Source: a virus (lineage: Duplodnaviria; Caudoviricetes). Taken from it: a stretch of DNA of 64,000 bases. Positions 7,855 through 63,954 of the stretch are shown one piece after another. How positions within the stretch are numbered: position 1 is the first letter of the stretch; each line of letters starts with the position of its first letter. The translations under genes and the position numbers were made by a program. The notes beneath the pieces are model-generated. The model ran no database searches. It saw nothing but the letters and a program-made list of their open reading frames with translations, and was not told the DNA's origin. The stretch is from positions 32,001 to 96,000 of the IMG/VR virus record IMGVR_UViG_3300014205_000170. One strand, written 5' to 3'.

Positions 7855-7883
7855 AAAAGTCTCCCTTAAGAAAGGAGACTTTT
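7855..7883. terminator. bidirectional terminator between convergent gene blocks
   Basis: AAAAGTCTCC/GGAGACTTTT inverted repeat. Confidence 0.8.
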
Positions 7884-8378
7884 TCTTTGTGTATGTTTTT
7901 CTATTAATGTTAGTCTGACAGAGCGTCCGGTAACAATACTCATATTAGTAATCTCTTCCTGCGAATCTATTTGATGCATACGTAGACCATATAGCCCTTT
8001 AGAAACGTCAGGAACAAATCCTGTCCAAATAATATATTGTATCGGCTCGTCATAAAAGAAACAAAACTTTAACATGATTACACAAGTATCGCCACACATT
8101 CGCAAATGACATCCACCAATATAAGATAACGATTTTATATCTTCTTTTATAAGATATTCTTTTTCAAAATCTTCATGATTGTCATTTGTTTTATAATTAA
8201 CCAATTCTTTGTGTTGTGAAATTTTAAGTACCTTATATAACAAATGTTCAAAGACCGGCATCTCTTTATTTAATTCAACTACATTAAGAGGTTTAAATAA
8301 TCTAAAATCATGCTTATGTTTCGTATTAGATTTAAATCTTTCAAAGATTCGCCTTATGAAATTAAAGTATTGATACAC
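7866..8378 (-). CDS. hypothetical protein with EK-tag
   Basis: C-terminal RLTLIEK. Confidence 0.75.
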   Translation of the reverse strand: MYQYFNFIRRIFERFKSNTKHKHDFRLFKPLNVVELNKEMPVFEHLLYKVLKISQHKELVNYKTNDNHEDFEKEYLIKEDIKSLSYIGGCHLRMCGDTCVIMLKFCFFYDEPIQYIIWTGFVPDVSKGLYGLRMHQIDSQEEITNMSIVTGRSVRLTLIEKHTQRKSLLS

Positions 8379-8382
8379 ACTT

Positions 8383-8390
8383 CAAAGATA
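8383..8390 (-). promoter_or_regulatory. Bacteroidota-type -7 promoter element (TAnnTTTG)
   Basis: TATCTTTG on minus strand 4 nt before start codon 8378. Confidence 0.55.
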
Positions 8391-8392
8391 TG

Positions 8393-8426
8393 AAAAACCC
8401 ACCAAAGATTTCTCTAAGATGGGTTT
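8393..8426 (-). terminator. rho-independent terminator
   Basis: minus strand AAACCCATC...GGTGGGTTT then T run. Confidence 0.65.
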
Positions 8427-8552
8427 AAGTACACGGCCAAGAATATTTTAAAGCAAAAGGCCCACCGAAGTAAGTAGGGTCTGGAACACGAATCGTAGGA
8501 GCAAACAAACAATGCGGGAAACCCTGGTATACTATCTAGTGAGCCTTTCTAT
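8393..8552 (-). ncRNA. candidate small RNA (~160 nt)
   Basis: own promoter (8560-8585) and terminator; stems AAAGGCTCAC/GTGGGCCTTT and AGGGTT/GACCCT pair fully only on minus strand; no ATG ORF. Confidence 0.55.
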
Positions 8553-8555
8553 TAT

Positions 8556-8585
8556 CTTTAACGAAAAACCTCAACCCAAAGTTAC
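8556..8585 (-). promoter_or_regulatory. ECF-type promoter GTAAC-N17-CGTTAAAG overlapping terminator
   Basis: plus strand gttac 8581-8585 and aacg 8560-8563. Confidence 0.6.
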
Positions 8586-8596
8586 TGAGTTGAGGT
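8564..8596 (-). terminator. terminator after sigma factor gene
   Basis: minus strand ACCTCAACTCA/TGGGTTGAGGT then TTTT. Confidence 0.75.
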
Positions 8597-8659
8597 GATT
8601 ATTTAAGTGAGTTTGTCTAACCAGTTGATATTCAAAAGAATAAAATTGTTAAGAACTTA

Positions 8660-9706
8660 TTATCCCTGCACGCAAACTAGCAAACCTTTGTGTTCTTCCA
8701 GATATGCTTTCATTTTCTTCTTTGCGCGATAAAGGTTTCCTTTCACAGTGCCTTCCGGAACGTTCAACGTTGCAGCAATGTCTTCATATGATTTATCTTC
8801 AATAAAACGCATTACAATCAAACGACGGCTGTTCTTATCAAGTCTAAGCAATGCTTTGTTTAAAGCAACAGTCTTATCGTTCTGTAAGATGATTTCTTCA
8901 CCATTCAACGAGTCTTCATCGCGAATAGATAGTTGAATTCCATTACCCTGGCCATTTAATAATTGTTGCCCATTATCAGATGTCAGATTACGGTCAATAG
9001 AAATCGTATTAAGTTTTCTTTTTCGAAGGTAATCAATAAAGAAGTTCTTCGCAATTTTTGTAATCCAACTGTTGAACGTATACGTTGGCTTGTATTCACC
9101 AATCTTTTCATATACTTTAATGAACAAGTCAGCTGTAAGGTCATCTGCTGCATCATCGTTAAACTGAAGATTCTTTGCATACATACGGTTAATAACCGGA
9201 TAGTAACGCTTATAAATTACAGCGAAAGCATTTATCTCACCGGCCATTATAGATTTAACTGCCTGGATGTCTTTTAAATCTTCACCAACGAACTTATCAC
9301 TATTACATGCATTCTCAATAGTTGCCAAAGATTCCTTGTTGAATTGTACAATCGTCTTAAGAGGTTTGATTGTTTCTACAACCACCGGTGTAGACATGTT
9401 TTTAATTTCTTCCGGATTCACAATTAATTTGCCACAACGGAATTCAATTTCACCAAACAATTCTTTAAGTTTTGTTTTATTACAATAAGCTCGTAATGTA
9501 GAATTAATAGAGAATTCTCTCGAATCAAGAATGTTAACCATTCTAATAGAAACATGTTTGTTTCCAGTATCCGATGGATAAATCCATTCGTTACCTTTGA
9601 TTTTTGCTTTCGTTAATGAAAACACACGAATAGAAATTTCTTTCTTCGTAGTAATACGACCAACTATCTGATAGAGTGGTGCTGATTTGATTTCTTTAAA
9701 ATTCAT
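8660..9706 (-). CDS. ECF (sigma-70 group 4) RNA polymerase sigma factor with long N-terminal extension
   Basis: region 2 (AFAVIYKRY, ADDLTADLFIKVY, FNSWITKIAKNFFIDYLRK) and region 4 (SYEDIAATLNVPEGTVKGNLYRAKKKM). Confidence 0.92.
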   Translation of the reverse strand: MNFKEIKSAPLYQIVGRITTKKEISIRVFSLTKAKIKGNEWIYPSDTGNKHVSIRMVNILDSREFSINSTLRAYCNKTKLKELFGEIEFRCGKLIVNPEEIKNMSTPVVVETIKPLKTIVQFNKESLATIENACNSDKFVGEDLKDIQAVKSIMAGEINAFAVIYKRYYPVINRMYAKNLQFNDDAADDLTADLFIKVYEKIGEYKPTYTFNSWITKIAKNFFIDYLRKRKLNTISIDRNLTSDNGQQLLNGQGNGIQLSIRDEDSLNGEEIILQNDKTVALNKALLRLDKNSRRLIVMRFIEDKSYEDIAATLNVPEGTVKGNLYRAKKKMKAYLEEHKGLLVCVQG

Positions 9707-9749
9707 GTTCCTTTTTTTTTATATTGTTTGTTTGCTCACTAATTACTTT

Positions 9750-9938
9750 TTAATATTCGACTTCACCTATTGTAGCGTCATCAATGTCATCTTTTTTATC
9801 AAGATGTTCTTTGATTTCTTTCTTCACTTTAGCGCGACGTATTCCAGATGTATTTTTCTTTTCACCTTTTCCTACATGTGCACCCCATTCACCGTTAAGT
9901 CCGGCATTCTTTTTATTTCCTGGTCTGATTTTTCCCAC
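9750..9938 (-). CDS. small basic hypothetical protein
   Basis: 62-aa ORF upstream of sigma. Confidence 0.6.
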   Translation of the reverse strand: MGKIRPGNKKNAGLNGEWGAHVGKGEKKNTSGIRRAKVKKEIKEHLDKKDDIDDATIGEVEY

Positions 9939-10070
9939 GTTAGATTTTATTTGCTCCCAGATTTTTACGTAAAATTATACAAAGAGTTGACATTATCTAC
10001 TTTTTTCTGTGTTAAATCTGGTAACTAACTGGGTATCAATTTAATTGTTTTTACAGTTGCCTGCGTGCAT

Positions 10071-10322
10071 TTAATCAACGGGCAAGTTTGTATAAGCAAA
10101 ATGTGTAACCCAATCTTTTGGTGCGCCAGTTACTCCTTCTATTAAGAAACTGTTAGCGAACCCATGAACATAGCGACCGAATCTCATTTGACCATCCTTG
10201 CAAAAAAGCAATAATTTATCACTTGCTCCTTGTATAAATGTCTCCTTTGCAGCTTTTGGAGATGCTGGAGGTAACACCACATTTTTGGTTACTTTAATCC
10301 AGTTAATTAGTTTTTTATTCAT
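10071..10322 (-). CDS. DUF551-like hypothetical protein
   Basis: NWIKV...LP and C-terminal VTHF pattern. Confidence 0.6.
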   Translation of the reverse strand: MNKKLINWIKVTKNVVLPPASPKAAKETFIQGASDKLLLFCKDGQMRFGRYVHGFANSFLIEGVTGAPKDWVTHFAYTNLPVD

Positions 10323-10779
10323 GGGATTTTACTTTTTCTATTAAAACATGTTTGGTATTTTCTTCAACAAATTTCATCATAAATTTATCTGGTGGTGTAA
10401 TACGTTTTAAACTCTTCGTATATACCTTTCTGTTGTCTACTGTGTATACAATACATCTATAAAATATTGTTGCAAGATTACCATCAATCCAACATCCTTT
10501 TTTTGATACAACTCTTTTCCAAGGACCATATCCATAAGTTGTCCCGCCGTAAGCTAAAACAACTGCTTGAGGAGCTTTAGATGTATCAATATATCTTACT
10601 CTACCATTTGGTGATGTCCTACCGGTATCTTTACAGTCCTTTACGCGAACAATCACAACATAATTCCATTCAACCGGATTGCCTTCATCATTTACATCGG
10701 TAGTTCCATTACCATCACGATAAGTAAACTCTCGTCTACGAGTACCTATTTGTTTTGTTTGTGTTACTCTTCGTATCAT
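10315..10779 (-). CDS. EK-tag protein, paralog of 10825-11301
   Basis: YGPWKRVV; C-terminal ENTKHVLIEK. Confidence 0.8.
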   Translation of the reverse strand: MIRRVTQTKQIGTRRREFTYRDGNGTTDVNDEGNPVEWNYVVIVRVKDCKDTGRTSPNGRVRYIDTSKAPQAVVLAYGGTTYGYGPWKRVVSKKGCWIDGNLATIFYRCIVYTVDNRKVYTKSLKRITPPDKFMMKFVEENTKHVLIEKVKSHE

Positions 10780-10796
10780 GTGTGTTGTTTCTTAAG

Positions 10797-10829
10797 GTAC
10801 TATACGAAATAAAAAAGAAAGGTGTTACA
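10797..10829 (-). promoter_or_regulatory. ECF-type promoter, class I
   Basis: minus strand TGTAAC-N17-CGTATAGTAC, nearly identical to the 5592 copy. Confidence 0.85.
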
Positions 10830-11301
10830 CTTCACCCGTTTCAAATTCCATATAAGATGGAACTTTGGTTTTAAATTTAACTTTTTCGGTTAACACAGTT
10901 TTTGTGTTTTCCATTTTTAAAATCTTTTGAAATGTATTTGGCTCATCAAGAACTCTGTGAACCTGGGTAATTACTTCACCATTATTTCCTAAAGAATAAA
11001 AATTTGATTGATAATATACGGTTGTATATTTATCTTTATAAATACTGTCTTTGTATTTAATGGGGGTTTTTAAGACAATTTTTTTCCAACGACCATATCC
11101 TGAATTTCTATCTTTATAAGCCAAAAAAACTACTTGTTGTTTAGTTTTCTTATCTATTATTACGATACACTCAGGATTGGTGATTATAGTATGAGCAAAA
11201 GATATATCAGAAATTAAATTGGCTTTTCTATAAGTTAAATTATTTCTTATAATAGGAAAGTCACAAAACCTTAATTCTTTTTCTTTTTTAGACTTGGTCA
11301 T
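10825..11301 (-). CDS. EK-tag protein, paralog of 10315-10779
   Basis: YGRWKKIV; ENTKTVLTEK. Confidence 0.8.
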   Translation of the reverse strand: MTKSKKEKELRFCDFPIIRNNLTYRKANLISDISFAHTIITNPECIVIIDKKTKQQVVFLAYKDRNSGYGRWKKIVLKTPIKYKDSIYKDKYTTVYYQSNFYSLGNNGEVITQVHRVLDEPNTFQKILKMENTKTVLTEKVKFKTKVPSYMEFETGEV

Positions 11302-11788
11302 CTAAATATTGTATGGGCTTACAAATTTTGCTTTTTAATTCTTTATAGGACTTTTTGAAAGGTGAATAAAAAATTCCTCTAACAATCAAACCTACAATTG
11401 CTGCATATAATAAAGTAGAAGGATATATAATAACACACATTAAAGCAGAAGATATAGTTGTGTGGAACATATTGGCAATACCAATGTTTATCCAAAAGGC
11501 AATGAATATAATAAAAATAAAGAACACAGAAGAAAGACGAACATGTTCCCACTTTGTATCGTTAACTATTTCATTACTTTGTTTATTATCCTCTTTTTTC
11601 TTAAAATTCATATCCAAACAACCACATCTAAATATTAACTCTAATGCACCTAACATAGGAAATAACATTATAGATAAAAATAAATTCCAATAGAAACTAC
11701 AAGTGTTTGTTGGTTTATAAAATGTCCTTGATTCAAACGTATACATGATAAGTTTGTACATCCAGTTATTTTTGTTTATAGTTTTCAT
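11288..11788 (-). CDS. membrane protein
   Basis: three hydrophobic segments. Confidence 0.75.
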   Translation of the reverse strand: MKTINKNNWMYKLIMYTFESRTFYKPTNTCSFYWNLFLSIMLFPMLGALELIFRCGCLDMNFKKKEDNKQSNEIVNDTKWEHVRLSSVFFIFIIFIAFWINIGIANMFHTTISSALMCVIIYPSTLLYAAIVGLIVRGIFYSPFKKSYKELKSKICKPIQYLDDQV

Positions 11789-11952
11789 TATGCTATAATT
11801 AAAAGATTAAGAACAAAAAGAAATGCAGCAATACCAAGAATACATACACCAAGAGAAGACCCTGAAAGAAATACAATAACAGCAGTAAGAACTGCACAAA
11901 ACAAAACTACTCCAAAAGTTAGCTTCCAATATTTTTTAAAAAATGATTTCAT
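11788..11952 (-). CDS. small membrane protein (54 aa, not in ORF track)
   Basis: ATG 11952 to TAA 11788, MKSFFKKYWKLTFGVVL..., two hydrophobic helices; stop overlaps next ATG. Confidence 0.55.
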   Translation of the reverse strand: MKSFFKKYWKLTFGVVLFCAVLTAVIVFLSGSSLGVCILGIAAFLFVLNLLIIA

Positions 11953-11954
11953 CG

Positions 11955-12173
11955 TTAATCTATTTTTTCTTTAATTAGAATCGACGAACTAGGCATTGGA
12001 GTAATATTAAGTTGAACTCCTGGTTCAGATACAGAGTGAATTTGTAAACTATCTTTACCAACCACCACACGGAATTTTTGTCCATGCTTGGTGGTTATTA
12101 ACACCACCGGCTCATTTGAATCTCCTTCTGTTTCAACTTTAGGCGAACCTAAACTATAAATTTTTTTTGCCAT
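11955..12173 (-). CDS. hypothetical protein
   Basis: ORF in operon spacing. Confidence 0.7.
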   Translation of the reverse strand: MAKKIYSLGSPKVETEGDSNEPVVLITTKHGQKFRVVVGKDSLQIHSVSEPGVQLNITPMPSSSILIKEKID

Positions 12174-12191
12174 ATCGTTTGGATTTTACAA

Positions 12192-12551
12192 TTAATCTTC
12201 AAATCTTTTTGGAGAATTTTCCAACAATTCCATCACGGCATCAAAAACCGACTTATCTTCTTTCTTTGCGCGTTTACCCCATCCTCTGTCATAAGCCACA
12301 ATGAGACTGTCATCATAGTTTTTCTTTGCTTCGCGAACAACTGTGTCAGATATGGCAAGACATGAAACACGGCCTTTTTTAATGCCATACTCTGAACCGG
12401 TATCAAAGAGCTTTGATTCAAATGTAAATTGCTTTCCATTAAGTCCAGTAACTGTACCGGCTACCCAATTAGTTTTATTATTAAATTCTGTAAAAACCGC
12501 TACTGGTTTTTTATTTACAATAACCTCTCTTTTTTCAGCTTGCTTTGCCAT
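12192..12551 (-). CDS. conserved phage hypothetical protein
   Basis: FDTGSEYGI..GRVS.L and YDRGW pattern. Confidence 0.75.
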   Translation of the reverse strand: MAKQAEKREVIVNKKPVAVFTEFNNKTNWVAGTVTGLNGKQFTFESKLFDTGSEYGIKKGRVSCLAISDTVVREAKKNYDDSLIVAYDRGWGKRAKKEDKSVFDAVMELLENSPKRFED

Positions 12552-12570
12552 GTACTTAATGTTTTATAAT

Positions 12571-12603
12571 GTACTATCCGAAATTTAAATCTTAGGTGTT
12601 ACA
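12571..12603 (-). promoter_or_regulatory. ECF-type promoter, class I
   Basis: minus strand TGTAAC-N17-CGGATAGTAC. Confidence 0.8.
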
Positions 12604-12604
12604 C

Positions 12605-13666
12605 TTAATCTTCTTCTTCAGAACCTTCCTTATAAATAAGTTGACTCGTCAAACACTCGCGAAAATCTACGTCATCTCTCTTTTCTTTAAAGGTTGGTTG
12701 GAAAATTGCTCCACCCAAATAAGCATAAAGATATCGAACCTCAACCACATCACCAATCGCCGGAATTTCTTTATTTGGAGGAATTGTACATTTACCCATG
12801 AATACGCGTTCCTTATTCTCATTTAACAATTCTAATCCAACACTCCTCTTACCTTTTGTAAAATCCTTTACTATAAAGCTTGCTTCTTTATAAAACTTAA
12901 ACTTCAAATGAGCGCCACCTGAGTTTGGTCGACCAGCAACATACTCACTATCCTTACGTTTAAAAACAATACCCTCAGCATTACGAGCTTTTAACTCATT
13001 ATACAACTTTCTCTTTTCAGAGGTAGTATAGGCGGTTTTTACTTTTTCAATTGAGTTGGTATGATTTAAAGACTCAAGTAACTTAAGTCTATGGTCTAAT
13101 CTATGTTCCTTTATACTTATTGTGTCCAAAAAAAGAACATCAAATACGTACAATTTATTACCAATAATTTCTCCATCAAGAGTACACTTGTTATATACAC
13201 AACCTTCAAAAGAATCTGGTAACTGTACTTCCTGGCCCTTTTTATTTAAACCCGTAATTTTTTCGTCCTTTGAAATAACCATACGACGCTGCCCATCAAA
13301 TTTCTCCTGAGCTACATAAGCATCATTTTGAATAAGACGCTCCACTTCAGACTCTTCAATAGAATTTAACAATTGAGGAAAAATCCCATGAGTCTTCTTT
13401 TCAGTAACTGCTGGGCCGGAAAATCCTGAACCTTTACCCTCCTTTTCAGCGTAACCCTTAGCCATCTTTTCCTTTACAAGCTTATCATATATCTTCAAAG
13501 CAGAAGCCTCATCAACCGGTTTAGGAGTTTTGGAACCACTCTGTAAAGCATTCCCAACTCGGCCATATTGAAAGTTAACCAAATAACCGGGCCCAGACTT
13601 TTCCATCTGAACATGATACTCCTTATCCGAGGAGCCTTCTTGAAAGTATAATGAGATTTTATTCAT
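12605..13666 (-). CDS. ATP-dependent DNA ligase with N-terminal WGR domain
   Basis: SDKEY..FQYGRVG..KEKMAKGY (WGR); motifs QEKFDG, LDGEI, YVFDVL, EGIVFK, KFK; C-terminal OB fold. Confidence 0.88.
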   Translation of the reverse strand: MNKISLYFQEGSSDKEYHVQMEKSGPGYLVNFQYGRVGNALQSGSKTPKPVDEASALKIYDKLVKEKMAKGYAEKEGKGSGFSGPAVTEKKTHGIFPQLLNSIEESEVERLIQNDAYVAQEKFDGQRRMVISKDEKITGLNKKGQEVQLPDSFEGCVYNKCTLDGEIIGNKLYVFDVLFLDTISIKEHRLDHRLKLLESLNHTNSIEKVKTAYTTSEKRKLYNELKARNAEGIVFKRKDSEYVAGRPNSGGAHLKFKFYKEASFIVKDFTKGKRSVGLELLNENKERVFMGKCTIPPNKEIPAIGDVVEVRYLYAYLGGAIFQPTFKEKRDDVDFRECLTSQLIYKEGSEEED

Positions 13667-13691
13667 CTTTTATAAGGTTTTTACGTTTAAG

Positions 13692-13724
13692 GTACTATAC
13701 GAGATTTAAATCTTAGGTGTTACA
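13692..13724 (-). promoter_or_regulatory. ECF-type promoter, class I
   Basis: minus strand TGTAAC-N17-CGTATAGTAC. Confidence 0.85.
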
Positions 13725-13728
13725 CTTT

Positions 13729-14100
13729 TTACCCTTCAACATCAACCATAACCGGAATTAAAGTACCATCCTCTAATTGGTCATGGAATTTGATTACTTC
13801 CAAAAGTAAAAGTTTATCCAAAGAAAGAATCGGAACATATTTTTCAATCAGGACTTTACGCTTCTGTTCTGCCAATTTTAATCTAAAAGTAAAAGTTTCA
13901 TAACCTACAACATCTTCAACCCATCTCCTGGTTCTATACATTCCATAGGTAGCAGAATCGCGAGTACACAAAGGATTCTTACAAATATCAAGCCTATGAG
14001 CTAATTTATAATCCACACCCTTCTGATAATTATGAATACCAACATAACACCTGAATTTTACAACCCATGCCTTAAATCTTATCTTTATACTTTTACTCAT
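13729..14100 (-). CDS. EK-tag protein
   Basis: RKVLIEK. Confidence 0.75.
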   Translation of the reverse strand: MSKSIKIRFKAWVVKFRCYVGIHNYQKGVDYKLAHRLDICKNPLCTRDSATYGMYRTRRWVEDVVGYETFTFRLKLAEQKRKVLIEKYVPILSLDKLLLLEVIKFHDQLEDGTLIPVMVDVEG

Positions 14101-14103
14101 ACA

Positions 14104-14136
14104 GTACTATACGAAATTAAAACTCTTGGTGTTACA
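14104..14136 (-). promoter_or_regulatory. ECF-type promoter, class I (inside end of upstream ORF)
   Basis: minus strand TGTAAC-N17-CGTATAGTAC, 3 nt before ATG 14100. Confidence 0.85.
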
Positions 14137-14445
14137 CTTCTCAATTAGGATTTTACGGGTATTTTGCTCTAAATTCCACCACACCTTCTCATATTCATAT
14201 TTAGGAATCCAATCCAAAAGTTCACCTTTAAACCTGAGTTTTAATTGAGCTAAGGCAAACTGACCAGTAGAAAAACATTTAAACTTCTCTTCTTTATTTT
14301 TACTTACAGACTCAGTCATAAATTTATGATACCAATAAATATTTGACCAATGAGATTGTGTGACCATATGATATGGAATCCGATTGCCATCCGCAGTCAT
14401 CCAATCACCATATTGTAAGTCTGCTTCTGTAAAATATCTGACCAT
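14107..14445 (-). CDS. EK-tag protein
   Basis: C-terminal TRKILIEK. Confidence 0.75.
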   Translation of the reverse strand: MVRYFTEADLQYGDWMTADGNRIPYHMVTQSHWSNIYWYHKFMTESVSKNKEEKFKCFSTGQFALAQLKLRFKGELLDWIPKYEYEKVWWNLEQNTRKILIEKCNTKSFNFV

Positions 14446-14449
14446 GTCA

Positions 14450-14480
14450 GTTTAAACGTAAAATCCTAAATTACGTTGCA
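14450..14480 (-). promoter_or_regulatory. ECF-type promoter, class II variant
   Basis: minus strand TGCAAC-N16-CGTTTAAAC, then ATG 14445. Confidence 0.55.
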
Positions 14481-14911
14481 ATGGTATTAGGGGTTCTAAT
14501 AACAAATACTCTATTTGTCCAAGCGTTGCAAATCATAGCAGAAAAATCGGTGGGGTCCATAAAAATGTGCACATCCAAATCTATTCTAAATTGTATCTCA
14601 TTTAAATGCTCATCATAAAAAACAACGTTCTTTGGAGCGTAAGAGTAATTATAATCCGAAACAGTAATTTGATAGTTCCTTAACTTTAATAATTTGGCTA
14701 ATATACATTTTGCGATAAAATCTGCCATCAAGTCATACCCACCAGGAGCATCTCGAAATAACTGATACCAGTATTTTTTTGAAATAGAATAAGGCTCATT
14801 ATAAGGAGAAAGTCCATAGCTCTTTTCTAAAATAACTTCTCTAGTTAAAAGTCCTTCCGGAGTATAATTTGAGCCGGAGTAACCGGTGCCTATGGTGATA
14901 AGTCGAGCCAT
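14471..14911 (-). CDS. EK-tag protein
   Basis: TREVILEK. Confidence 0.75.
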   Translation of the reverse strand: MARLITIGTGYSGSNYTPEGLLTREVILEKSYGLSPYNEPYSISKKYWYQLFRDAPGGYDLMADFIAKCILAKLLKLRNYQITVSDYNYSYAPKNVVFYDEHLNEIQFRIDLDVHIFMDPTDFSAMICNAWTNRVFVIRTPNTIAT

Positions 14912-18141: not shown

Positions 18142-18167
18142 AATAATATTTTAAACTTAAAAAACAA

Positions 18168-53323: not shown

Positions 53324-53579
53324 TTATGATGAGAAAATATATAAATTACTTTCAACAGGAGATATACATAATAAAGTGCTGATTGAGAAAAAATTAGAAT
53401 TTCAAAAATACTGGATAAAAAGAGCTATCATTGAATATGATTCTCCAAAAAACCAAATATTAGGAGCAAGATGTATAAAAAATGCTTTTCCAAAATTAGG
53501 TTTGTTTTATATTAAACAATTTTTGGATAATCACACAAATATTAATTTATTGAAATTTATACAAGAAAATATTGAGTAA
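53316..53579 (+). CDS. EK-tag protein
   Basis: NKVLIEK. Confidence 0.75.
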   Translation: MNNYDEKIYKLLSTGDIHNKVLIEKKLEFQKYWIKRAIIEYDSPKNQILGARCIKNAFPKLGLFYIKQFLDNHTNINLLKFIQENIE

Positions 53580-54437: not shown

Positions 54438-54463
54438 CAAAAAAGCTATAAATTCGTTTAAAT
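54433..54463 (+). promoter_or_regulatory. ECF-type promoter, class II
   Basis: TGTAAC 54433-54438, N16, CGTTTAAAT from 54455. Confidence 0.75.
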
Positions 54464-54466
54464 ATA

Positions 54467-54901: not shown

Positions 54902-55172
54902 AGATTGTTGTAAAAATTGTTTGTTAAGCCCAGACAGTATTGTAAGTCCTAAAAGACGTAAAGAAATAATCAATACTTGTGCTAAGAAACAATCATACTT
55001 TATTTGCCACAAAGCAAGCATGGATAACAAAGAAGTTGTGTGTAAAACATTTTATGATACTTTAGGACACATTTCTCAAATGGTTCGCATTGCACAACGG
55101 TTAAATGCTATTGAAGAAGTTGAACAACCAGAAGCAGAGAAATTACCTACTTATAAAGAAATGCAAAAATGA
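54885..55172 (+). CDS. Cys-rich hypothetical protein
   Basis: CKNC..FICHK..VCKTF. Confidence 0.75.
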   Translation: MLKVYKDCCKNCLLSPDSIVSPKRRKEIINTCAKKQSYFICHKASMDNKEVVCKTFYDTLGHISQMVRIAQRLNAIEEVEQPEAEKLPTYKEMQK

Positions 55173-55639
55173 AAAAATTAAAGTCCGGTCACGAAATAGA
55201 AAAGAAGATTCTTTTAAAGAAGCTTCCCAAAATCACATTTGATGAAATTCAGAACATAACTCAATACTATACCCCTAAAGGTCGCTTTAGAAGCGTTCAT
55301 ACTGTAAAGGGTATCAAGTTCATCAAAACAATTAAAAAACACATTACAATTGGTGTAAACGATGAACAAGAATGGGAGTTGACACAAGCTGAGTTTAACA
55401 AAGCAATTAAAACTGCTACTAGGAAAATCATCAAAACCAGGTTTATCAAAAAAACCAAAACAGTAAAGTGGGAAATTGATGTATTTGCTTTCATAAAATT
55501 GATAATCGCAGAAGTGGAAGTGAAAAATCAAAAACAACTTTCAAGCATTAAGCTTCCAAAATTCATAAAAAATGAAATGATTTTGGATGTAACCGGTATT
55601 AAAGCTTTAAACAACTTTAGTTTAGCAGAAGAATTATAA
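55169..55639 (+). CDS. CYTH domain (triphosphate tunnel) protein
   Basis: HEIEKK (ExExK), ITQYY, IIKTR, WEIDVF, IAEVE, DVTG. Confidence 0.85.
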   Translation: MKKLKSGHEIEKKILLKKLPKITFDEIQNITQYYTPKGRFRSVHTVKGIKFIKTIKKHITIGVNDEQEWELTQAEFNKAIKTATRKIIKTRFIKKTKTVKWEIDVFAFIKLIIAEVEVKNQKQLSSIKLPKFIKNEMILDVTGIKALNNFSLAEEL

Positions 55640-55650
55640 TTTATTACAAC

Positions 55651-56088
55651 ATGGCTAAAAAAGAAACAAGTGTTTCACAGAAAACGGTTATGACAGAAAA
55701 AATTTCTGAAAGACCTTTATTGAAATTACATGTTCCCGGAGAAAGTTTTTGGGCATATAAAATTTCTGAAAATACTGCTGAAATTGGAAATATACTTATG
55801 AATCCAGATTATTGTTTGGGTGACATTGTATCATTTAATCCAAACAACAATGAAGTTATAAAATTAATAGAGAAAAAAACCACCACTTTAGCTATGAGCT
55901 ATTCTAAAGATGGTGATGTTAAAGAAAAATATAGTAAAATTTATACTTATTTTGAAGATAAAAACATTAAAGTAGAAGGTATGTTTGCTGGAGTTTTCTT
56001 ATTGGCTATTCCTATTAATATTCCAGAAAAAGCCATTGAACAAATTATAGCAGAGTGTCCTGAAAAAATAGATTTTATTGTTGATTAA
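55651..56088 (+). CDS. EK-tag protein
   Basis: KTVMTEK; GESFWA..IGNI. Confidence 0.8.
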   Translation: MAKKETSVSQKTVMTEKISERPLLKLHVPGESFWAYKISENTAEIGNILMNPDYCLGDIVSFNPNNNEVIKLIEKKTTTLAMSYSKDGDVKEKYSKIYTYFEDKNIKVEGMFAGVFLLAIPINIPEKAIEQIIAECPEKIDFIVD

Positions 56089-56092
56089 AAAA

Positions 56093-56574
56093 TTCGTTCT
56101 TTGAATTGGTACTTAAAGTTAATTCAAAATTTTTATGTGGTTAAACCTACGGGGATTTGCCATGACGAGCCGGTTTAAAACCAATGAACCGTTTAACTTA
56201 TGAGCATCTTATATAGATAAGTGCTGCATAAAGAAATTGAATTAGCCTGAACCTTCATTTGCATTATTTATGAAGTAAAGAGCTGCCTTAAAAACAGGTC
56301 AAGAATAATGTAAGTTTTACTATTAACATCTTTATAGTATTACGGCTGCTGTACGTCTTCAGCAAAGCTTAGTAAGCAATTTTACAGGCATGACAGACAA
56401 AGAAAGATGTGAGTGATATTCAATAAATAATACTTATTGAAGAAACAAGAAGTTTCAGAAGGGATGATTGCTATGCCTTAATTCTTCTTAGGGATATTTC
56501 TGAAAATTATAAAATCCTCTTTAACTAAAAAAGAGTACCAAACCAGTGGAGGCTGGAACGAAGAGTTGGTACTT
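56093..56574 (+). ncRNA. candidate large structured ncRNA (~480 nt)
   Basis: ORF-free 515-bp gap with about ten hairpins and 5'/3' long-range pairing; strand assumed from context and G-U pairs. Confidence 0.7.
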
Positions 56575-56603
56575 ATTTTGAAAAAGAAGAATATACGATA
56601 ATA

Positions 56604-56927
56604 ATGAAAAAAACATATACCACAAAACAAGCATTGACTCTTTTCAAAAAAAATCTCAAAAAAAAGAGGCCAGTTATAAATGCTTATTTGAAAAAATATT
56701 TACAAAAAATCATTAATAAAGAACTAGGGAAGGAATACAGAATTGAGGCTATGAAAATACTGTTAAAAGCAAAAAGAGAAGAAGTGGCTGAATTTCTCAT
56801 ATCTTATCATTCTGATGGAGTAAATGCTGGTATTTGCTGTCTTGCTTTGGATTTTATAAAAGACCGTCTTGTAAAAGACAAAGAGGTCGGAGAAAATTTT
56901 TGTAAAAAATTCGGTAATAAATTTTAA
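56604..56927 (+). CDS. hypothetical protein
   Basis: ORF. Confidence 0.75.
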   Translation: MKKTYTTKQALTLFKKNLKKKRPVINAYLKKYLQKIINKELGKEYRIEAMKILLKAKREEVAEFLISYHSDGVNAGICCLALDFIKDRLVKDKEVGENFCKKFGNKF

Positions 56928-56928
56928 C

Positions 56929-57503
56929 ATGGCAAATCACGCAAGAATTTGTTCAAAGAAAAAGATTGACCCCAAAGAGGTTACAAAAATCATTAAAGGT
57001 CTTAATGAAGATATATTAGCTGGAGTTTTTACTATTGAATATCAACACAAACAAGAAAACGGATGGGGGAACATCAATGGTATGTACGTTATAAACAAAA
57101 CGAGAGGATTGCCTTAATGTTTTGGTTGACAGATGATGTTCGATATGGAACAGGTGATGAATATGGTTCTCAAAAGGAATATAAAGAATATAAAAAACCC
57201 AAGACTCTATCCAAACAAAGTTGCATTGAATTTCGACATGGTCATGCTTTTCAATTCATGTGGTGGGTAGAAGGGGTATTTAGAGAAAATCTGGGTAAAC
57301 ATTATAATGCTCAAATGTGGGATGATGGTACAGGTTGGTTAGAAAAAGCCAAACCTGAGCTTTATAAAACATTAGAAAGTTATGTTACCGGCATTGGTTG
57401 TAAAACTAAAGAACAAATTAAAGCTTGGAAAAAACTTCATTTTGATTGGCAGAAAGATGAAATTCCAAAAGAATTAATTAAAAAATTAAAATTAGATTTT
57501 TAA
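56929..57503 (+). pseudogene. hypothetical gene split by frameshift in G5 run
   Basis: ORFs 56929-57117 and 57063-57503 fuse if one G is added at 57065-57069. Confidence 0.55.
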
Positions 57504-57505
57504 AT

Positions 57506-57682
57506 ATGAACGACAATAAAGCATTTGCAATAATAGTAACAACAGGAATAGTGTGTGGAGCAATATTCCTTTCTATTGTGTCAATAACATCTAAAGATGT
57601 TGATATAAGCAAAGAAAAAACAGAACAATTAAAATATCAATTCAAAATTGATTCCTTAGCAAAAGTTTCTTCTGCAAAATAA
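57506..57682 (+). CDS. small membrane protein (58 aa, not in ORF track)
   Basis: MNDNKAFAIIVTTGIVCGAIFLSIVSI...; ATG 57506 to TAA 57682. Confidence 0.6.
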   Translation: MNDNKAFAIIVTTGIVCGAIFLSIVSITSKDVDISKEKTEQLKYQFKIDSLAKVSSAK

Positions 57683-57710
57683 AGAACATATTCAACTTCG
57701 AAAGGTTTTA

Positions 57711-58037
57711 TTGGAGTTTAATAAAAACCTTAATATACAAACATATCGAACTTGGTTAAAAAACTACACAGGCGAAAAACTCCATAGTTTTAGTTACATC
57801 TCTCCTCTTGGCTATTTAACTAAACTTCCAACTTTAAAATATAATGGTTTTAAAATTATTTATGATAGAGTCTGGGGTGAAGTTCTAAAATGGAAAAATC
57901 AAGATATTATTATATACACAATGTCTAAACATCATATTGATAAAAAATCAGAGGTTGTATATATCATTGAAAATGAATATAGTAACAATGGAAAGTTGAA
58001 TGGTAAACGTATTCAACTTTTTCACAAAAAAAAGTAA
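57711..58037 (+). CDS. hypothetical protein
   Basis: TTG-start ORF. Confidence 0.65.
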   Translation: MEFNKNLNIQTYRTWLKNYTGEKLHSFSYISPLGYLTKLPTLKYNGFKIIYDRVWGEVLKWKNQDIIIYTMSKHHIDKKSEVVYIIENEYSNNGKLNGKRIQLFHKKK

Positions 58038-58063
58038 CAAATTGACCTTCTTTTCGTTGAAAT
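58034..58063 (+). promoter_or_regulatory. ECF-type promoter, class II
   Basis: GTAAC 58034-58038, N16, CGTTGAAAT from 58055. Confidence 0.7.
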
Positions 58064-58067
58064 CTAG

Positions 58068-58820
58068 ATGCCTCCCATGGACACAATATTGGAACAAGCC
58101 ATAAAATCACATAAAACTTTATCCCTAGATACAGATAAACGCTATGTGTTTGAAGATTTTATACATTCATATAGTATGAAATGTGCATTTGATATTTTCA
58201 GTTGCAATGAAAAAAAATTAGCAAAACACTTACCAGATATTTTACATCATATAAGCGAAGCTGTTACATATACTAAACCTCGTATTGTTTTTCATGAAAG
58301 AACAATGACATTAGAAAAAATGATTGACAAAATAATACAGCGTATAGAAGAAAGATTTGAAGTAGAAGATTTATTAATAAACAAAGTTAAAGAAATTCAA
58401 AAAAATAATACAAATTCTATTATTAATTTTAATCAGCTTTTATTAAGACAACTAAGAAGTTTTGTTCATGGCTTTCATACGTGTGGTAGATTTTATAAAT
58501 TCAAAATAACTTCTCATCACAATAATGCTACCACTTTATATTATGTGTCTACTTTAGATTCTTTTAGTAATAAAAAATCTAAAAAAATTTTTGATGACCG
58601 TTTTAACATAACAATATCAAAAGAAGTTCGAAGTGCATATTGGGAATTAAATAAAAAAACTAAAGATTTTTTTTCTTTTAAAGAAGGTGATAAAACAATT
58701 TTACAAAAAAAAGAATTAGAACAATTTTTAAAATTATTATTTCAAGGTTTATTGCAACCAGCAATCGATTATAATGATAGTAATAGTAAATTTGGAAAAA
58801 GTAGAATAAACGCATTTTAA
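58068..58820 (+). CDS. hypothetical protein
   Basis: 250-aa ORF. Confidence 0.8.
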   Translation: MPPMDTILEQAIKSHKTLSLDTDKRYVFEDFIHSYSMKCAFDIFSCNEKKLAKHLPDILHHISEAVTYTKPRIVFHERTMTLEKMIDKIIQRIEERFEVEDLLINKVKEIQKNNTNSIINFNQLLLRQLRSFVHGFHTCGRFYKFKITSHHNNATTLYYVSTLDSFSNKKSKKIFDDRFNITISKEVRSAYWELNKKTKDFFSFKEGDKTILQKKELEQFLKLLFQGLLQPAIDYNDSNSKFGKSRINAF

Positions 58821-58832
58821 AAAATAAAAATC

Positions 58833-59204
58833 ATGAAAACAATTACATTAACACTCTTGACATTAGTTTTATTAACTTCATGTGGAGAACCCTCTAAAAT
58901 TTCAGAAATCCCAGTTATTGAACAGGTTGAATTGTTAGATTCTCCAAATACATACGCTAAAAGATATGCTGTGAAACTCAAAACATCAACAGCTGAAAAA
59001 CAAACTTTCATGTACACAAACTTTAAATATGAAGTTGGTGATACTTTAGTGAGTTTCAATACTTATGTTAGATACAAAACCAAACCGGCAGATAGCCTGA
59101 AAATTTATCAAGACAGATATAGAGAACTTAAACAAGAAAATGATGCTTTAAAAAATTACGTTAAATTTTTAGAGAAAAAAATAATTAAAAGTTATACTGA
59201 ATAA
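58833..59204 (+). CDS. putative lipoprotein
   Basis: MKTITLTLLTLVLLTSC signal peptide with lipobox. Confidence 0.8.
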   Translation: MKTITLTLLTLVLLTSCGEPSKISEIPVIEQVELLDSPNTYAKRYAVKLKTSTAEKQTFMYTNFKYEVGDTLVSFNTYVRYKTKPADSLKIYQDRYRELKQENDALKNYVKFLEKKIIKSYTE

Positions 59205-59650
59205 TGATAACTTTCAAATCGAAACGAGAACTGTTCTCATTTGTTGTTGGAGATAAAGAAAGAGTGCCTGATTTTTATGTAAAACATAAATATAAAGGTT
59301 ATGGCATTTATGATTCTGAGTGCATAATAAAAATTTGGACAAAGCAAAAATACACAGTTGTTCTACTGATTGATATTGGTGTAGGCACTTCTGTTATAAA
59401 CAGTGCTGAGCAATTAATAAGTGATTTATGGAAAATGTGTTTAGGACATGTGGGTATAAAAAGAGAAGATTGTTTATTTTTAGAAACATCTCTTGAGCGA
59501 GGAGAATATGAAGCTGATGAAATTGAGCCTGTGTGGTCAAAATTCAGTGTCTTGCATGGTCCGGTAGAATATAAACGAAGTGAATTGTCAGAAACAACAA
59601 TATATGAATGTAAAAAAGTTAATTTTAAACCATTTGGAAAATTACCTTAA
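59204..59650 (+). CDS. hypothetical protein
   Basis: GTSVINSAE pattern. Confidence 0.75.
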   Translation: MITFKSKRELFSFVVGDKERVPDFYVKHKYKGYGIYDSECIIKIWTKQKYTVVLLIDIGVGTSVINSAEQLISDLWKMCLGHVGIKREDCLFLETSLERGEYEADEIEPVWSKFSVLHGPVEYKRSELSETTIYECKKVNFKPFGKLP

Positions 59651-59938
59651 GTGATGAAGAAAAAAAATGAAACTTTTCAACAAGGCTTAAAGCGAATTTT
59701 ATCCAAAAAAGTTTACGAACTTGCCTTAAAAAACACTCATCACAAAAGACGTAAAAGAATACATAATTTTATAAGAAATCATGATATTCTTACTGGGGCT
59801 TTTTATTGGGGCAACACAAAACAAGGATTAGATTTTTGGCATACTGAGTGGTTGAAAATAGAATACAAACAACGTACTGGTAAAACATTATTTATTTTAA
59901 AAACATGGAAGAAAATTTATACAACAAAAACGGTCTAA
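59651..59938 (+). CDS. hypothetical protein
   Basis: AFYWGNTKQGLDFW pattern. Confidence 0.75.
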   Translation: MMKKKNETFQQGLKRILSKKVYELALKNTHHKRRKRIHNFIRNHDILTGAFYWGNTKQGLDFWHTEWLKIEYKQRTGKTLFILKTWKKIYTTKTV

Positions 59939-60585
59939 TGTTTTGGACCCAGGAAGAAATTAAATTAAGAAGAATGTTTGAAGACTATTTTTCTACCGAA
60001 ATACTTTCTTCTTTGCGTAAACAAAATGCGGCATTTCAACTCATTCAAGTAGAAGCTCCATTGTTAACGCCACAAGAATTAATAAACAAAAACTATACAC
60101 AGGACGATATATGGTCCTTTGGAGAACTTTGCTTAAGACCAGAGACTACTATGGGTTCCTTTATTTATGCAAAACATATTTTATCAGGTCATAATGAAAT
60201 AAAACAAAAACCTCCAATTGTTGTTTTTCAACATGGAAAGTCGTTTCGTCAAGAACAAGACCAACCTACAAAATTTATGCGTCTTAAAGAATTTTATCAA
60301 TTGGAATTTCAAATTATTTTTGGAGAAAATACTGCTAATGATTACTCTCTTAAATTGTATCCAGATGTTCTTAAAGCAATTTCTAATATGATTGGAGAAT
60401 GTAGAATGGAAGCCAGTGATAGGTTGCCGGATTATTCTGAAGAAACCATGGATGTTGTGTGGGTGAAATCAAATATGGAAGTTTGTTCTATGAGTAAACG
60501 TAAAGATTTACTAGGATATAAAGTAATTGAGATTGCAATAGGTACTGATAGATGTCTTTACTGTTTTAATAGTAAAAATTGCTAA
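59905..60585 (+). CDS. class II aminoacyl-tRNA synthetase catalytic core (GlyRS-like), no anticodon-binding domain
   Basis: LRPETT, motif 2 GKSFRQE..MRLKEFYQLE, motif 3 IEIAIGTDR; only 226 aa. Confidence 0.8.
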   Translation: MEENLYNKNGLMFWTQEEIKLRRMFEDYFSTEILSSLRKQNAAFQLIQVEAPLLTPQELINKNYTQDDIWSFGELCLRPETTMGSFIYAKHILSGHNEIKQKPPIVVFQHGKSFRQEQDQPTKFMRLKEFYQLEFQIIFGENTANDYSLKLYPDVLKAISNMIGECRMEASDRLPDYSEETMDVVWVKSNMEVCSMSKRKDLLGYKVIEIAIGTDRCLYCFNSKNC

Positions 60586-60639
60586 AGGAGCAAAAGGGTA
60601 CTTAGAACTTTTCTTGTTTATTTATATTAAAATAGATAA

Positions 60640-61368
60640 ATGGCAAGAAAAGAAAAGAAGTATCATTTCATTTACAAAACAACAAATTTACTTAATGATA
60701 AGTATTATATTGAAATGCATTCAACTAATGATTTGAATGATAGATATTTAGGCTCTGGTAAATATTTAAAACGTTCCATAAAAAGATATGGAAAAAATAA
60801 TTTTAAATTTGAAAAACTTAAATTTTTTTCTAGCAGAAAAGAATTAATAGAAGGTGAAAAAGAATATGTGAATGATATAGTTTTACAAGACCAATTGTGT
60901 ATGAATTTACGTGAAGGCGGAGGAGGTACAGTTGTAGACTTCAAACATTCAGAAGAAACAAAAAGAAGAAGGTCCATCGAGAGTTCAAAAACATATGAGG
61001 AAAGAGTTGGAGATAAAAGAGCAAAGATTTGGAGTAATAGGATTTCTAAATCTCTAATTAAATATAATAAAGAAATTGGTATTTCTGATGAAACCAGGAA
61101 AAAACTTTCAAATTCTCATAAAGGACAAATTCCTTGGAATAAAAATCAAAAAACTGGTTTTATTCCTTGGAATAAAGGAGTGGTTGGTTCAATGATAGGA
61201 AAAGGAAGTGGTGTGCAAAAAGGAAATGTACCTTGGAATAAAGGGAAAATTAATGACAAGATTTTGATTTATAATAACTTTGAAAAAAAGACTAAACAAA
61301 TAAAACCGGATGAATTACAAAAATGGATAAATCTTGGTTGGATAAAAGGAAGAAAAATAAAATGGTGA
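60640..61368 (+). CDS. GIY-YIG homing endonuclease with NUMOD3-like repeats
   Basis: FIYKTTN..KYYIEMH..YLGSG; HSEETK, SDETRKKLS, PWNK x3. Confidence 0.85.
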   Translation: MARKEKKYHFIYKTTNLLNDKYYIEMHSTNDLNDRYLGSGKYLKRSIKRYGKNNFKFEKLKFFSSRKELIEGEKEYVNDIVLQDQLCMNLREGGGGTVVDFKHSEETKRRRSIESSKTYEERVGDKRAKIWSNRISKSLIKYNKEIGISDETRKKLSNSHKGQIPWNKNQKTGFIPWNKGVVGSMIGKGSGVQKGNVPWNKGKINDKILIYNNFEKKTKQIKPDELQKWINLGWIKGRKIKW

Positions 61369-61709
61369 AAAAAACAACTACTGATATAACAAAAATTGTA
61401 AAAAACAAAAGTTTAATTTTACCTTCACAAGTAAAAATAGTTCTTGATTATTTAAAAGAGCATAAAATCAACGAATTAGATATGAAAAAGGTCGAAAATT
61501 TTTCTTCTGGATTCGCTGTTTGTTTGATTCATGAATATAATAAATCTGTAAAATTTCGAAGATTTGAAAAGTTGTTATTTTTCAATGTAAAAAATCCTAT
61601 TTGGGTATATAAAATACAAGAAGCTCAATTTAATTTTTTTGATAAAGAAACAGCAAAAAAATACATTAAGATTCACGATAAAATTTTGAATAACATAATT
61701 AATTCTTAA
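61362..61709 (+). CDS. hypothetical protein
   Basis: ORF. Confidence 0.7.
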   Translation: MVKKTTTDITKIVKNKSLILPSQVKIVLDYLKEHKINELDMKKVENFSSGFAVCLIHEYNKSVKFRRFEKLLFFNVKNPIWVYKIQEAQFNFFDKETAKKYIKIHDKILNNIINS

Positions 61710-61710
61710 G

Positions 61711-61980
61711 GTGAAATCAGAAGCCATTAAATTAAGTGATGACCAAGTACGAGTTCAGATAGCAAAATGTCCAGCTTGTAAAAAAATAGTTTTAATGGCT
61801 ATTGCTCATCTTATGGAGAGAAAAGATGAAATGGATTTTGTAAAATTAATGAGAAAAGAATGTAAAATTAGTCGGATTAGTCTTGAGGAAGCTAGAAATT
61901 TAGAGAGATGTTTTCTTGATTGTGATAGACCTTTGGTGGTACCTCGACAATTATTAATAGAAAAAACAATAAACACATGA
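61711..61980 (+). CDS. EK-tag protein
   Basis: C-terminal PRQLLIEK. Confidence 0.75.
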   Translation: MKSEAIKLSDDQVRVQIAKCPACKKIVLMAIAHLMERKDEMDFVKLMRKECKISRISLEEARNLERCFLDCDRPLVVPRQLLIEKTINT

Positions 61981-62735
61981 GAGCATTTTTAGAAACAGTT
62001 GAAGGTGATTATCTAGATGATTTTGTGTTTATTGCAAAATACGCTTTACAAAACTTAGGTGTTGAAATTATTGATTTTGACGGAAACAAACTTAAAGAGT
62101 TTAAAGATAAATATGTATTCAATCTCAAAAATGATATTATTATAGGTTCAGTAGAAGCCTCATGTGTTTTTTTTAAAGCTTGTAAAATAGAAGAACCAAA
62201 ATATTTAGGTTATCCCGAAGAATTAAAATCATTTTTAAATAGAGAAATTTTAGAAACTACATTTGGAGAAATTAATTATCCATACCCATACTTCATTAAG
62301 CCTCGTACACACGTAAAGTTATTTACCGGCTCTCTCATTAAAACCGAGAAGAGTTATAATTTTATGAGAGATTTCTACAAAGAGGTTCAGAGTGATACTG
62401 CTTTATTTTTAAGCTCTCCTATTGACTTTATTACGGAATATCGTTGTTTTGTACATAAAGGAGTTTTAAAGGGCATACAATGGTATTGTGGAGACTTTAC
62501 GGTGTTTCCTAACATTCAAAAGATAAACGATATGATTGAAGCCTATAAGTCTGCGCCTATTTCATATACCTTAGACGTAGGTGTTCATTTAAGTGAAAAC
62601 GGAGCAGCAGAAACTAGTTTGGTAGAAGTAAATGATATGTGGGCTATTGGCAGTTATGGATTTAACGGAGAAGATTATGTTCGCATGACCATTGACAGAT
62701 TCCAAGAAATATATAAAAAAACATTATTTAAATAA
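61977..62735 (+). CDS. ATP-grasp domain protein (DUF4343/R2K-like)
   Basis: YPEEL..FL.R, FIKP..KLFTG, EYRCFV, YTLDVG, LVEVND. Confidence 0.82.
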   Translation: MRAFLETVEGDYLDDFVFIAKYALQNLGVEIIDFDGNKLKEFKDKYVFNLKNDIIIGSVEASCVFFKACKIEEPKYLGYPEELKSFLNREILETTFGEINYPYPYFIKPRTHVKLFTGSLIKTEKSYNFMRDFYKEVQSDTALFLSSPIDFITEYRCFVHKGVLKGIQWYCGDFTVFPNIQKINDMIEAYKSAPISYTLDVGVHLSENGAAETSLVEVNDMWAIGSYGFNGEDYVRMTIDRFQEIYKKTLFK

Positions 62736-63238
62736 TGGAAAATTTGAATATTATACAAGCAAAGTTTTATTTAGATAATAAAAATGGTGAACTTAATGCT
62801 CATGTAGATATTTGGTTTGACAAAGCTCGTTTCAATAAAAGAATTGTTCGTCTTGAAAAAACTCAAAAAATTCATCCGATTGCTTTTGAAGTTATTAAAG
62901 ATGATATTATGACATTTATGCAGTATTTTATATATACTGAAAAAGATTTAGATAGAAGTCGACAAAAAAAAGAAGGAAATTTCAGTGATTATTTTACAAC
63001 TGGGCCAATTGCATTTTTTGGTGGTCTTTTAAATCAACAAAGAGATGTTTATTTGCCTCCAAATTTACTTTATTTTAAACAAAAATATATTTCTAATAGT
63101 TACCCTCCAAACGAGGTTCAAAATTTTATAGCATTAAAATTACCAGACTACATAGAATATGATTTAGAAAACTATCAAGCACAAAAGGCTAGAGAAGAGA
63201 AAAATCATAAAACATGGTTTGATATTCCAGGCTGCTAA
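62735..63238 (+). CDS. hypothetical protein with tag variant
   Basis: KRIVRLEK. Confidence 0.75.
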   Translation: MENLNIIQAKFYLDNKNGELNAHVDIWFDKARFNKRIVRLEKTQKIHPIAFEVIKDDIMTFMQYFIYTEKDLDRSRQKKEGNFSDYFTTGPIAFFGGLLNQQRDVYLPPNLLYFKQKYISNSYPPNEVQNFIALKLPDYIEYDLENYQAQKAREEKNHKTWFDIPGC

Positions 63239-63270
63239 GTCAGGAATTTTTTATATCTTTACATGGTTAA

Positions 63271-63954
63271 GTGGCTAAAGATATCGAAATAACTTTTGGA
63301 AAGTTCGTAATTATCGAAAAAATCTCTAATGATTTTATAGACTTTATTTCTCCTGTGTGCAAAGTAGTACCCAATAGTGCTTTACACATGTGTATATGTG
63401 GTACATATACAGCAACAATAATCCGTTATGCACCATTAACTCCAGAATCAAACATTTTTATAATTAGAGCATTAAGAATAAGTAAGGTAAGAAAAGAATA
63501 TCTTTATATTAATGATACCTTACCATCAACTGATAACAATTTTCTTAGAGAAACACTATATGCAGTTGCCAATGCTAAGCATACTGTAAAGATAATGCTA
63601 CAAGGAAAGATGAAAATTCAACTACTTGATAGTACCGTATATGCTTGTCACAAAGAATCTCTTGGAGAGCTCATAATAAAATTTTCTAAAGATTTTAATA
63701 ATGTTCAGAAAATTAAATATCAATTTCAATTGTCAGATTGTGAAGAAATTGTTGCACCTTATCACAAAATACTTTTAGATGAATGTGTACTTTTATATGG
63801 ACAATACAATACAGAACATCAACTCATTAGACATACTACTCACATAAGTGACCATCATTTAAAAGCCCTTAAACGTGATATAAACAATTATTTAAAAACT
63901 TTAAAAAGAAAAGGTAGGAGATTACTATCAAAATCTATACATTTGAATGTATAA
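63271..63954 (+). CDS. EK-tag protein
   Basis: N-terminal KFVIIEK. Confidence 0.75.
   Translation: MAKDIEITFGKFVIIEKISNDFIDFISPVCKVVPNSALHMCICGTYTATIIRYAPLTPESNIFIIRALRISKVRKEYLYINDTLPSTDNNFLRETLYAVANAKHTVKIMLQGKMKIQLLDSTVYACHKESLGELIIKFSKDFNNVQKIKYQFQLSDCEEIVAPYHKILLDECVLLYGQYNTEHQLIRHTTHISDHHLKALKRDINNYLKTLKRKGRRLLSKSIHLNV

Follow-up and report, generated by a model that had tools for sequence, protein, structure and literature searches.

Here we describe a short peptide motif, selected as protein, that recurs in small, fast-evolving proteins encoded by about a quarter of the genes of a huge phage. It lies in a 64,000-nucleotide stretch of DNA (the window), bases 32,001-96,000 of the virus record IMGVR_UViG_3300014205_000170. 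In huge phages the small genes are mostly of unassigned function, and here one peptide places a quarter of a 519-kb genome in a single class, which contains two validated immune-inhibitor families as well as mimics of phage proteins sensed by bacterial immunity. We propose, with what we judge to be an even chance of being right, that the tag is a portable, non-covalent docking peptide that would bring binders for counter-defence, as well as mimics, to a single cytoplasmic partner.

The record is complete (518,809 bp, 30% GC, terminal repeats present), and coordinates given as genome positions (G000) refer to it. The analysis covered 141 genes in the window and 862 genome-wide, called as a greedy set of open reading frames (ORFs) with approximate starts. 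The phage is T4-like, encoding a gp23 capsid protein (genome 355857-357416), a gp21-type prohead protease and a T4 portal and terminase; the nearest capsid proteins from cultured phages are those of Flavobacterium phages, at 35% identity. The promoter consensus TAnnTTTG is typical of Bacteroidota, and promoters of this type in the genome indicate that the host is probably a member of that phylum. The stretch is contained in a single sequencing run, a landfill metagenome from 2018 that is possibly its source; no RNA data set was listed as containing it.

A peptide motif selected at the protein level

The consensus, [TKS]-R-x-V-[LI]-[IFLTV]-E-K, is one residue (T, K or S) longer upstream than first reported. 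Among the window genes, the strict pattern gave 31 sites compared with 0.03 in shuffled sequences (maximum 1) and the loose pattern 50 compared with 0.5; genome-wide, the corresponding figures were 89 against 0.2 and 162 against 3.4, the latter an excess of about 47-fold. The five alternative frames of the same genes held 10 loose matches in 823,000 residues, the reversed motif occurred at chance level, and conservative variants (D for E, R for K) were near chance. Thus the motif stands far above both the shuffled and the out-of-frame controls suggested in the preliminary description.

Tagged genes were called with an iterated position-weight matrix at a false discovery rate of about 5%, which yielded 234 sites in 228 of the 862 genes, including 65 genes in the window; a few matches inside large enzymes are probably false positives. 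The window total agrees with the roughly 65 motif-bearing ORFs counted earlier by hand, all the example motifs cited at that time lie in frame in the ORFs named, and the three codon strings given for RIVLFEK match the sequence exactly. The 65 proteins comprise 9 paralog families and 35 singletons, in keeping with the at least six families and many singletons described before, and because these amount to 44 unrelated groups, whole-gene ancestry does not explain the motif. Within the R-x-V-[LI]-x-E-K core, position 4 is L or I in 199 of the 234 sites (~85%) and position 6 is E in 228 of 234; this E is near-invariant, with 181 sites compared with at most one for any other residue. The K is present in 181 of 191 otherwise perfect sites, the rare substitutes being F (4) and R (2). 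One ortholog group has F replacing K in three genomes, and the tail-tube copy of one relative has R there.

Codon usage at each motif position equals the genome average, and ortholog pairs from related phages, 57 in all, shared identical codons no more often than random draws. With codons following genome usage and randomised between orthologs, the earlier conclusion that selection acts on the protein rather than on a DNA site is borne out. Orthologs that carry the tag diverge faster than small genes without it (median identity 37% vs 60%, p=2e-8), and against this background the motif stands out, with E identical in 96%, K in 93% and R in 75% of orthologs, compared with 38% for the remaining positions.

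The motif had been described as nearly always single, and more than one copy was indeed found in just 5 small proteins where 32 were expected. Site positions also confirm placement at N-termini, at C-termini and internally: 73% of sites are near a terminus, compared with 47% expected, and 61 are internal. The C-terminal side accounts for 99 sites, 14 of them within two residues of the end, and only 2 of 225 begin within three residues of the N-terminus. Proteins with membrane helices are depleted among tagged proteins (6/219 vs 57/476, p=3e-5), as are those with signal peptides; the tagged proteins are mostly soluble, although one has four membrane helices.

Tagged proteins and their distribution among related phages

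About 90% of tagged proteins matched nothing in family searches. Two are family members above the Pfam cut-off, an Acb3 (PF25187, genome 341232, E 6e-37) and a Tad3 (PF25185, genome 268856, E 3e-27), the latter with its tag at the extreme C-terminus; Tad3 binds ThsB (PMC13728456). By family membership, then, the tag is joined to a target-binding domain in both, and it is an addition that forms no part of the inhibitors as described. Among 120 Acb3 homologs, the tag occurs in 21, always within a loop insertion of 21-27 residues, and the other 99 have a two-residue turn at that place. The structural model of the tagged Acb3 has a mean predicted local distance difference test score (pLDDT) of 93, with the insertion modelled as coil (pLDDT ~70) and the fold intact; a comparison of this model with the PDB gave no significant fold match. 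In an Acb3 tree built by a quick method only, the tag distribution requires four changes, and we therefore do not claim a single origin. A PADLOC search returned three weak single matches only.

The second recognisable group consists of tagged copies, dead or partial, of the phage's own morphogenesis proteins: the capsid protein (three fragments), the tail tube (two copies), the ATPase domain of the terminase, the prohead protease, a fragment of the portal and a segment of a tail fibre. The acid pair of Walker B has been lost from the terminase copy, and the His and Ser from the prohead-protease copy; in two of the capsid fragments the tag sits inside capsid-derived sequence. The true structural proteins of the phage are untagged. 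Capsid, portal, terminase and tube proteins are triggers of bacterial immune systems other than the cyclic-oligonucleotide-based antiphage signalling system (CBASS). For CBASS, activation by prohead proteases has been described (PMC12991175).

By sequence comparison, the tag is clade-wide and clade-limited. It was present in every record that was 89-90% identical in the capsid, 82-86% identical in the terminase, or syntenic around the AAA+/M41 gene. In one of these, a 213-kb record (G051), 63 of 437 genes are tagged compared with 3 in shuffles; of 17 genes homologous to tagged ones, 16 have the tag as well. Relatives at or below 82% capsid identity have no tags beyond chance, except for single degenerate copies in orthologs, and de novo motif searches in six records (G007, G012, G013, G019, G020 and G021) revealed no comparable tag. 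In G018 (67% capsid identity) this motif is absent and another tag, M-R-K-x-F-Y, mostly N-terminal, marks about 40 small genes, with arrays (loci L109-L128) at 222859-229700 and 371573-373612. The bearers of M-R-K-x-F-Y include fragments of that phage's own capsid and one copy each of its terminase and tube; that such mimics bear an unrelated tag in this distant phage suggests that the design is general among huge phages.

Proposed docking to a common partner and competing explanations

Beyond a selected protein motif on inhibitors and mimics, what follows is what we infer. The anatomy of the tag (a basic residue, three hydrophobics, an invariant E-K, no fixed position, one copy, an exposed loop) fits a groove-bound extended peptide, and we propose that it binds as an extended strand in the groove of a single cytoplasmic partner. 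More than 200 variable bodies, whether binders of host defence proteins or baits mimicking immune triggers, would thereby be treated alike. Delivery to a protein-disposal machine, either the host Clp protease or the phage ClpC/ClpP, would be the most likely purpose, so that a captured host sensor would be destroyed or mimics would be cleared before assembly; such delivery takes about half of the weight that we give to docking. An address label at the protein level, read by one factor, had been put forward in the preliminary description: the codon tests, the single copy, the Acb3 loop insertion and the conservation uphold the label, and the reader would still be a proposal.

Several observations weigh against docking of counter-defence proteins. 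Only 2 of 215 tagged proteins are above the cut-off for a named anti-defence family, and a counter-defence library is for that reason an extrapolation. Relatives without the tag hold untagged portal and capsid fragments (G007:153681, G012:48864, G018:12104, G019:73409, G021:57659 and 37707), so that mimic and tag are separable, and the mimic genes appear from these sequences to be older than, or independent of, the tag. ClpC/ClpP are also encoded by G007 and G019, relatives without the tag, and ClpC is missing from G018. Furthermore, we know of no match of the tag to a ClpX degron or an SspB tail. ClpX degrons fall into five classes, all terminal (PMC12723719), and the tag, found also in the internal Acb3 loop, agrees neither with N-motifs 1-3 or C-motifs 1-2 nor with dependence on a free terminus. 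The closest functional parallels are adaptors and tails of AAA+ proteases, such as the SspB XB tail on the ClpX N-domain and the engineered CLIPPERs (PMC12373786), which likewise combine a variable binder with a short basic-hydrophobic strand for one machine; these, however, number a few per cell and not hundreds, the tag has no sequence match to the known tails, and the protease link here is a proposal.

A host-encoded reader is equally as possible as a phage-encoded one. Gene co-occurrence with tagged relatives could be compared for about half of the genome, and the best phage-encoded candidate would be a clade-restricted caspase-like protein, DUF6642 (genome 471940-472509; L024:3940-4506), whose gene adjoins the terminase copy. 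It folds as a stand-alone protease resembling SAVED-CHAT proteins and caspases, with an invariant His-Gly and a near-invariant Cys, and no mention of the family was found in the literature searched. The phage also has a cluster of DnaJ, ClpP and a ClpC without N-domain (genome 170427-175938), in which ClpC adjoins ClpP, an arrangement that speaks for docking; these were rejected as readers that track the tag, being also encoded by tagless relatives, and no free Clp_N or ClpS gene was found in the phage genome. The same N-domain-less ClpC type occurs in many huge-phage contigs. A soluble AAA+/M41 (FtsH-like) protease (genome 484139-486160), with many homologs in phage-like contigs, was set aside as well, as it is found in three loci with no tags in 130 genes and the tag-rich 213-kb record lacks it in the region of synteny. 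A peptide tag read by a MoxR/vWA system was discarded, the required MoxR AAA+ and vWA genes (PF07726, PF13519) giving no match in the complete genome. A search of the tag profile against PDB sequences gave one non-significant match (3GF8, E 0.71).

Two further results bear on the alternatives. Three promoter classes were recognised, early (GTGTAAC-N17-CGTATAGT), middle (TAnnTTTG) and late (CTATTTAT), and the tagged share of small genes is 6/89 for early, 121/284 (43%) for middle and 9/55 (16%) for late genes (middle vs late, p=2e-4); 236 small genes without a promoter class are outside these counts. Additionally, a second motif, R-[ML]-x-x-[LM]-[AS]-G-[ILV], is found at the C-terminus of the scaffold (genome 357450-358925) and at a terminus of nine other proteins (genome 160945, 179342, 294795, 402935, 408432, 410209, 410792, 442709 and 451862), of which five are late-class and several have an adjacent L-x-E site; it is also enriched in G013. 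This second motif is likely the head-loading signal, and is a better candidate for that role than the R-x-V-[LI]-x-E-K tag.

These results count against the option that the preliminary description had placed first, capsid targeting with prohead cleavage at E|K. Here the tag would be a capsid-targeting sequence (CTS) as in T4, where a 10-residue tag is borne by the variable internal proteins IPI-III, of which IPI is an anti-restriction protein, and where gp21 cuts after L/I-X-E (PMC9026906); anti-defence cargo would be packed, cleaved and injected with the DNA. The likeness is that a short peptide is common to small variable proteins of a T4-like phage, some of them anti-defence, that the L/I-x-E site is contained in about 85% of the tags, and that a gp21-type protease is encoded. 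The CTS, however, forms the first 10 residues of a handful of proteins and is removed by cleavage, whereas the tag does not keep to the extreme N-terminus, is found in 228 proteins including the four-helix membrane protein, and is mostly C-terminal or internal, so cleavage would leave it in place. Moreover, tagged genes favour middle over late promoters, and the scaffold-type tag on late head proteins, often beside L-x-E, already fits head loading. In T4, too, the internal proteins are expressed early, and timing is therefore not decisive by itself; even so, we regard capsid targeting as distinctly unlikely. Also unlikely in our estimate, if slightly less so, is that the motif is the P6-P1' site of a Glu-specific protease, best represented by DUF6642, that would process, ligate or mark tagged proteins for turnover. 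Such a protease would account for E being the most invariant residue and for F and R as the rare substitutes of K, since a cut would leave Lys, Phe or Arg at the new N-terminus, and each of these is an N-degron residue. DUF6642 combines a caspase/CHAT fold with a His-Cys pair; it occurs in four tagged relatives, at 65-78% identity, and in none of 22 tagless phage records. Kinship could explain this co-occurrence, however, and DUF6642 itself had led to two of the four relatives; homologs with 48% identity are ordinary Bacteroidota chromosomal genes with no tags nearby, cleavage at the 14 sites within two residues of the C-terminus would remove almost nothing, and G018 has no DUF6642 and a tag without Glu.

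Covalent modification of the Lys (or Glu), whether the enzyme came from the phage or the host, would agree with the retention of K, for which Arg is a rare substitute, and with the R2K ATP-grasp ligase in the window. The option of Lys conjugation, raised earlier, is weakened by the conserved K-to-F variant in three genomes and the K-to-R variant in the tube copy; since, in addition, none of the tested enzymes tracks the tag and the G018 tag is chemically different, we hold it to be very unlikely. The charge-complementary pattern around a hydrophobic core, along with the position independence, might instead reflect a self-pairing strand, R facing E in an antiparallel sheet, through which tagged proteins would co-assemble as a scaffold or condensate with no separate reader. 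That E and K are strict, D and R being nearly excluded, suggests a pocket instead; a single tag in each protein means low valency, and the G018 tag is not self-complementary, so that self-assembly seems highly improbable. Finally, the motif could be a by-product of composition or of a DNA/RNA element (insertion element, promoter, frameshift site), as the tags come in as short insertions that keep the frame and have been duplicated locally; frame specificity, average codon use, chance-level codon identity between orthologs and the excess over shuffles make this an explanation we scarcely credit. An RPE-like in-frame DNA insertion element was also rejected, the expected nucleotide-level conservation not being seen.

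Returning to docking, a broader and rather doubtful extension is that huge phages run a modular counter-immunity platform, in which one clade-specific peptide would plug each of more than 200 binders and baits, whether known inhibitors or dead mimics (capsid, portal, terminase, tube, protease), into the same proteolytic or sorting machine; this would be the prokaryotic equivalent of the E3-adaptor libraries of viruses. If so, the tag would be a genome-wide marker for the discovery of anti-defence proteins, and about 220 ranked candidates are at hand. In Plasmodium PEXEL proteins, oomycete RxLR proteins and viral F-box/BC-box adaptors, many fast-evolving bodies stand under one motif and one machine. 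The likeness, hundreds of unrelated bodies united by a short motif, is an analogy only: those libraries are not homologous to the tagged proteins and need signal peptides or cullin ligases. The preliminary description knew of no account of the motif; likewise, the literature searched contained no description of the motif or design and nothing of comparable scale for a phage, and a landfill megaphage paper is silent on the motif.

Layout of the window and neighbouring genes

The immediate-early genes at 1..7645 (plus strand), under GTGTAAC-N17-CGTATAGT promoters, serve as an internal negative control, with one borderline site among 16 genes. The first 7.8 kb had been called motif-free, which is nearly so, the borderline site being in ORF 649-1614. 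A minus-strand block (7866..14911) follows, with 7 tagged small ORFs (7866, 10315, 10825, 12192, 13729, 14107 and 14471) among 18 genes, and untagged genes for a sigma factor (8660-9706), which is sigma-70/ECF-like, and a ligase (12605-13666). The tags are densest in a plus-strand array at 16992..38559, where 42 of 57 genes, encoding 70-230 amino acids, have a single tag each (one gene twice). Further downstream (40481..63954, plus strand), 15 of 51 ORFs are tagged, mixed with untagged genes for SufE, methionyl-tRNA synthetase (MetRS) and the R2K ATP-grasp ligase. The earlier observation that the recognisable window enzymes are motif-free thus holds for the sigma factor, SufE, MetRS and the ligases.

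Individual sites illustrate the freedom of placement: near the N-terminus at residue 8 (25811..25831, plus), internal at residue 81 of 123 (13840..13860, minus), and four residues short of the stop (61945..61965, plus). At 27233..27305 (plus), the C-terminal tag of one gene and the N-terminal tag of the next lie 52 bases apart in different frames. The largest array family has 12 members, six of them in tandem (35674..38000, plus) and the others at 16992, 17659, 18168, 21927, 23956 and 24600, each with a Cys-pair domain, an internal tag and a short C-terminal helix; an ESM Atlas search linked it to no named family. In a 107-amino-acid ORF (19157..19480, plus), the tag at residue 22 precedes a Tad3-like domain that is a weak match (E 0.004, under the family cut-off). 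In a 92-amino-acid ORF (48439..48717, plus), with a paralog at 47897-48166, a tag at residue 7 is followed by a UVR coiled-coil motif like that of the ClpC middle domain.

About 50 near-identical early promoters are found at window 1-14100 and genome 516000-46200, many of them 13 bases upstream of a start codon, which implies leaderless mRNAs. A single atypical tRNA-like gene lies at window 5497-5586, its anticodon left undetermined by ARAGORN. The genome is rich in aminoacyl-tRNA synthetase-like genes (window 50898-52352, 59905-60585 and elsewhere), and it also encodes two RpoD-like sigma factors (genome 305507 and 306453) and four PcfJ proteins.

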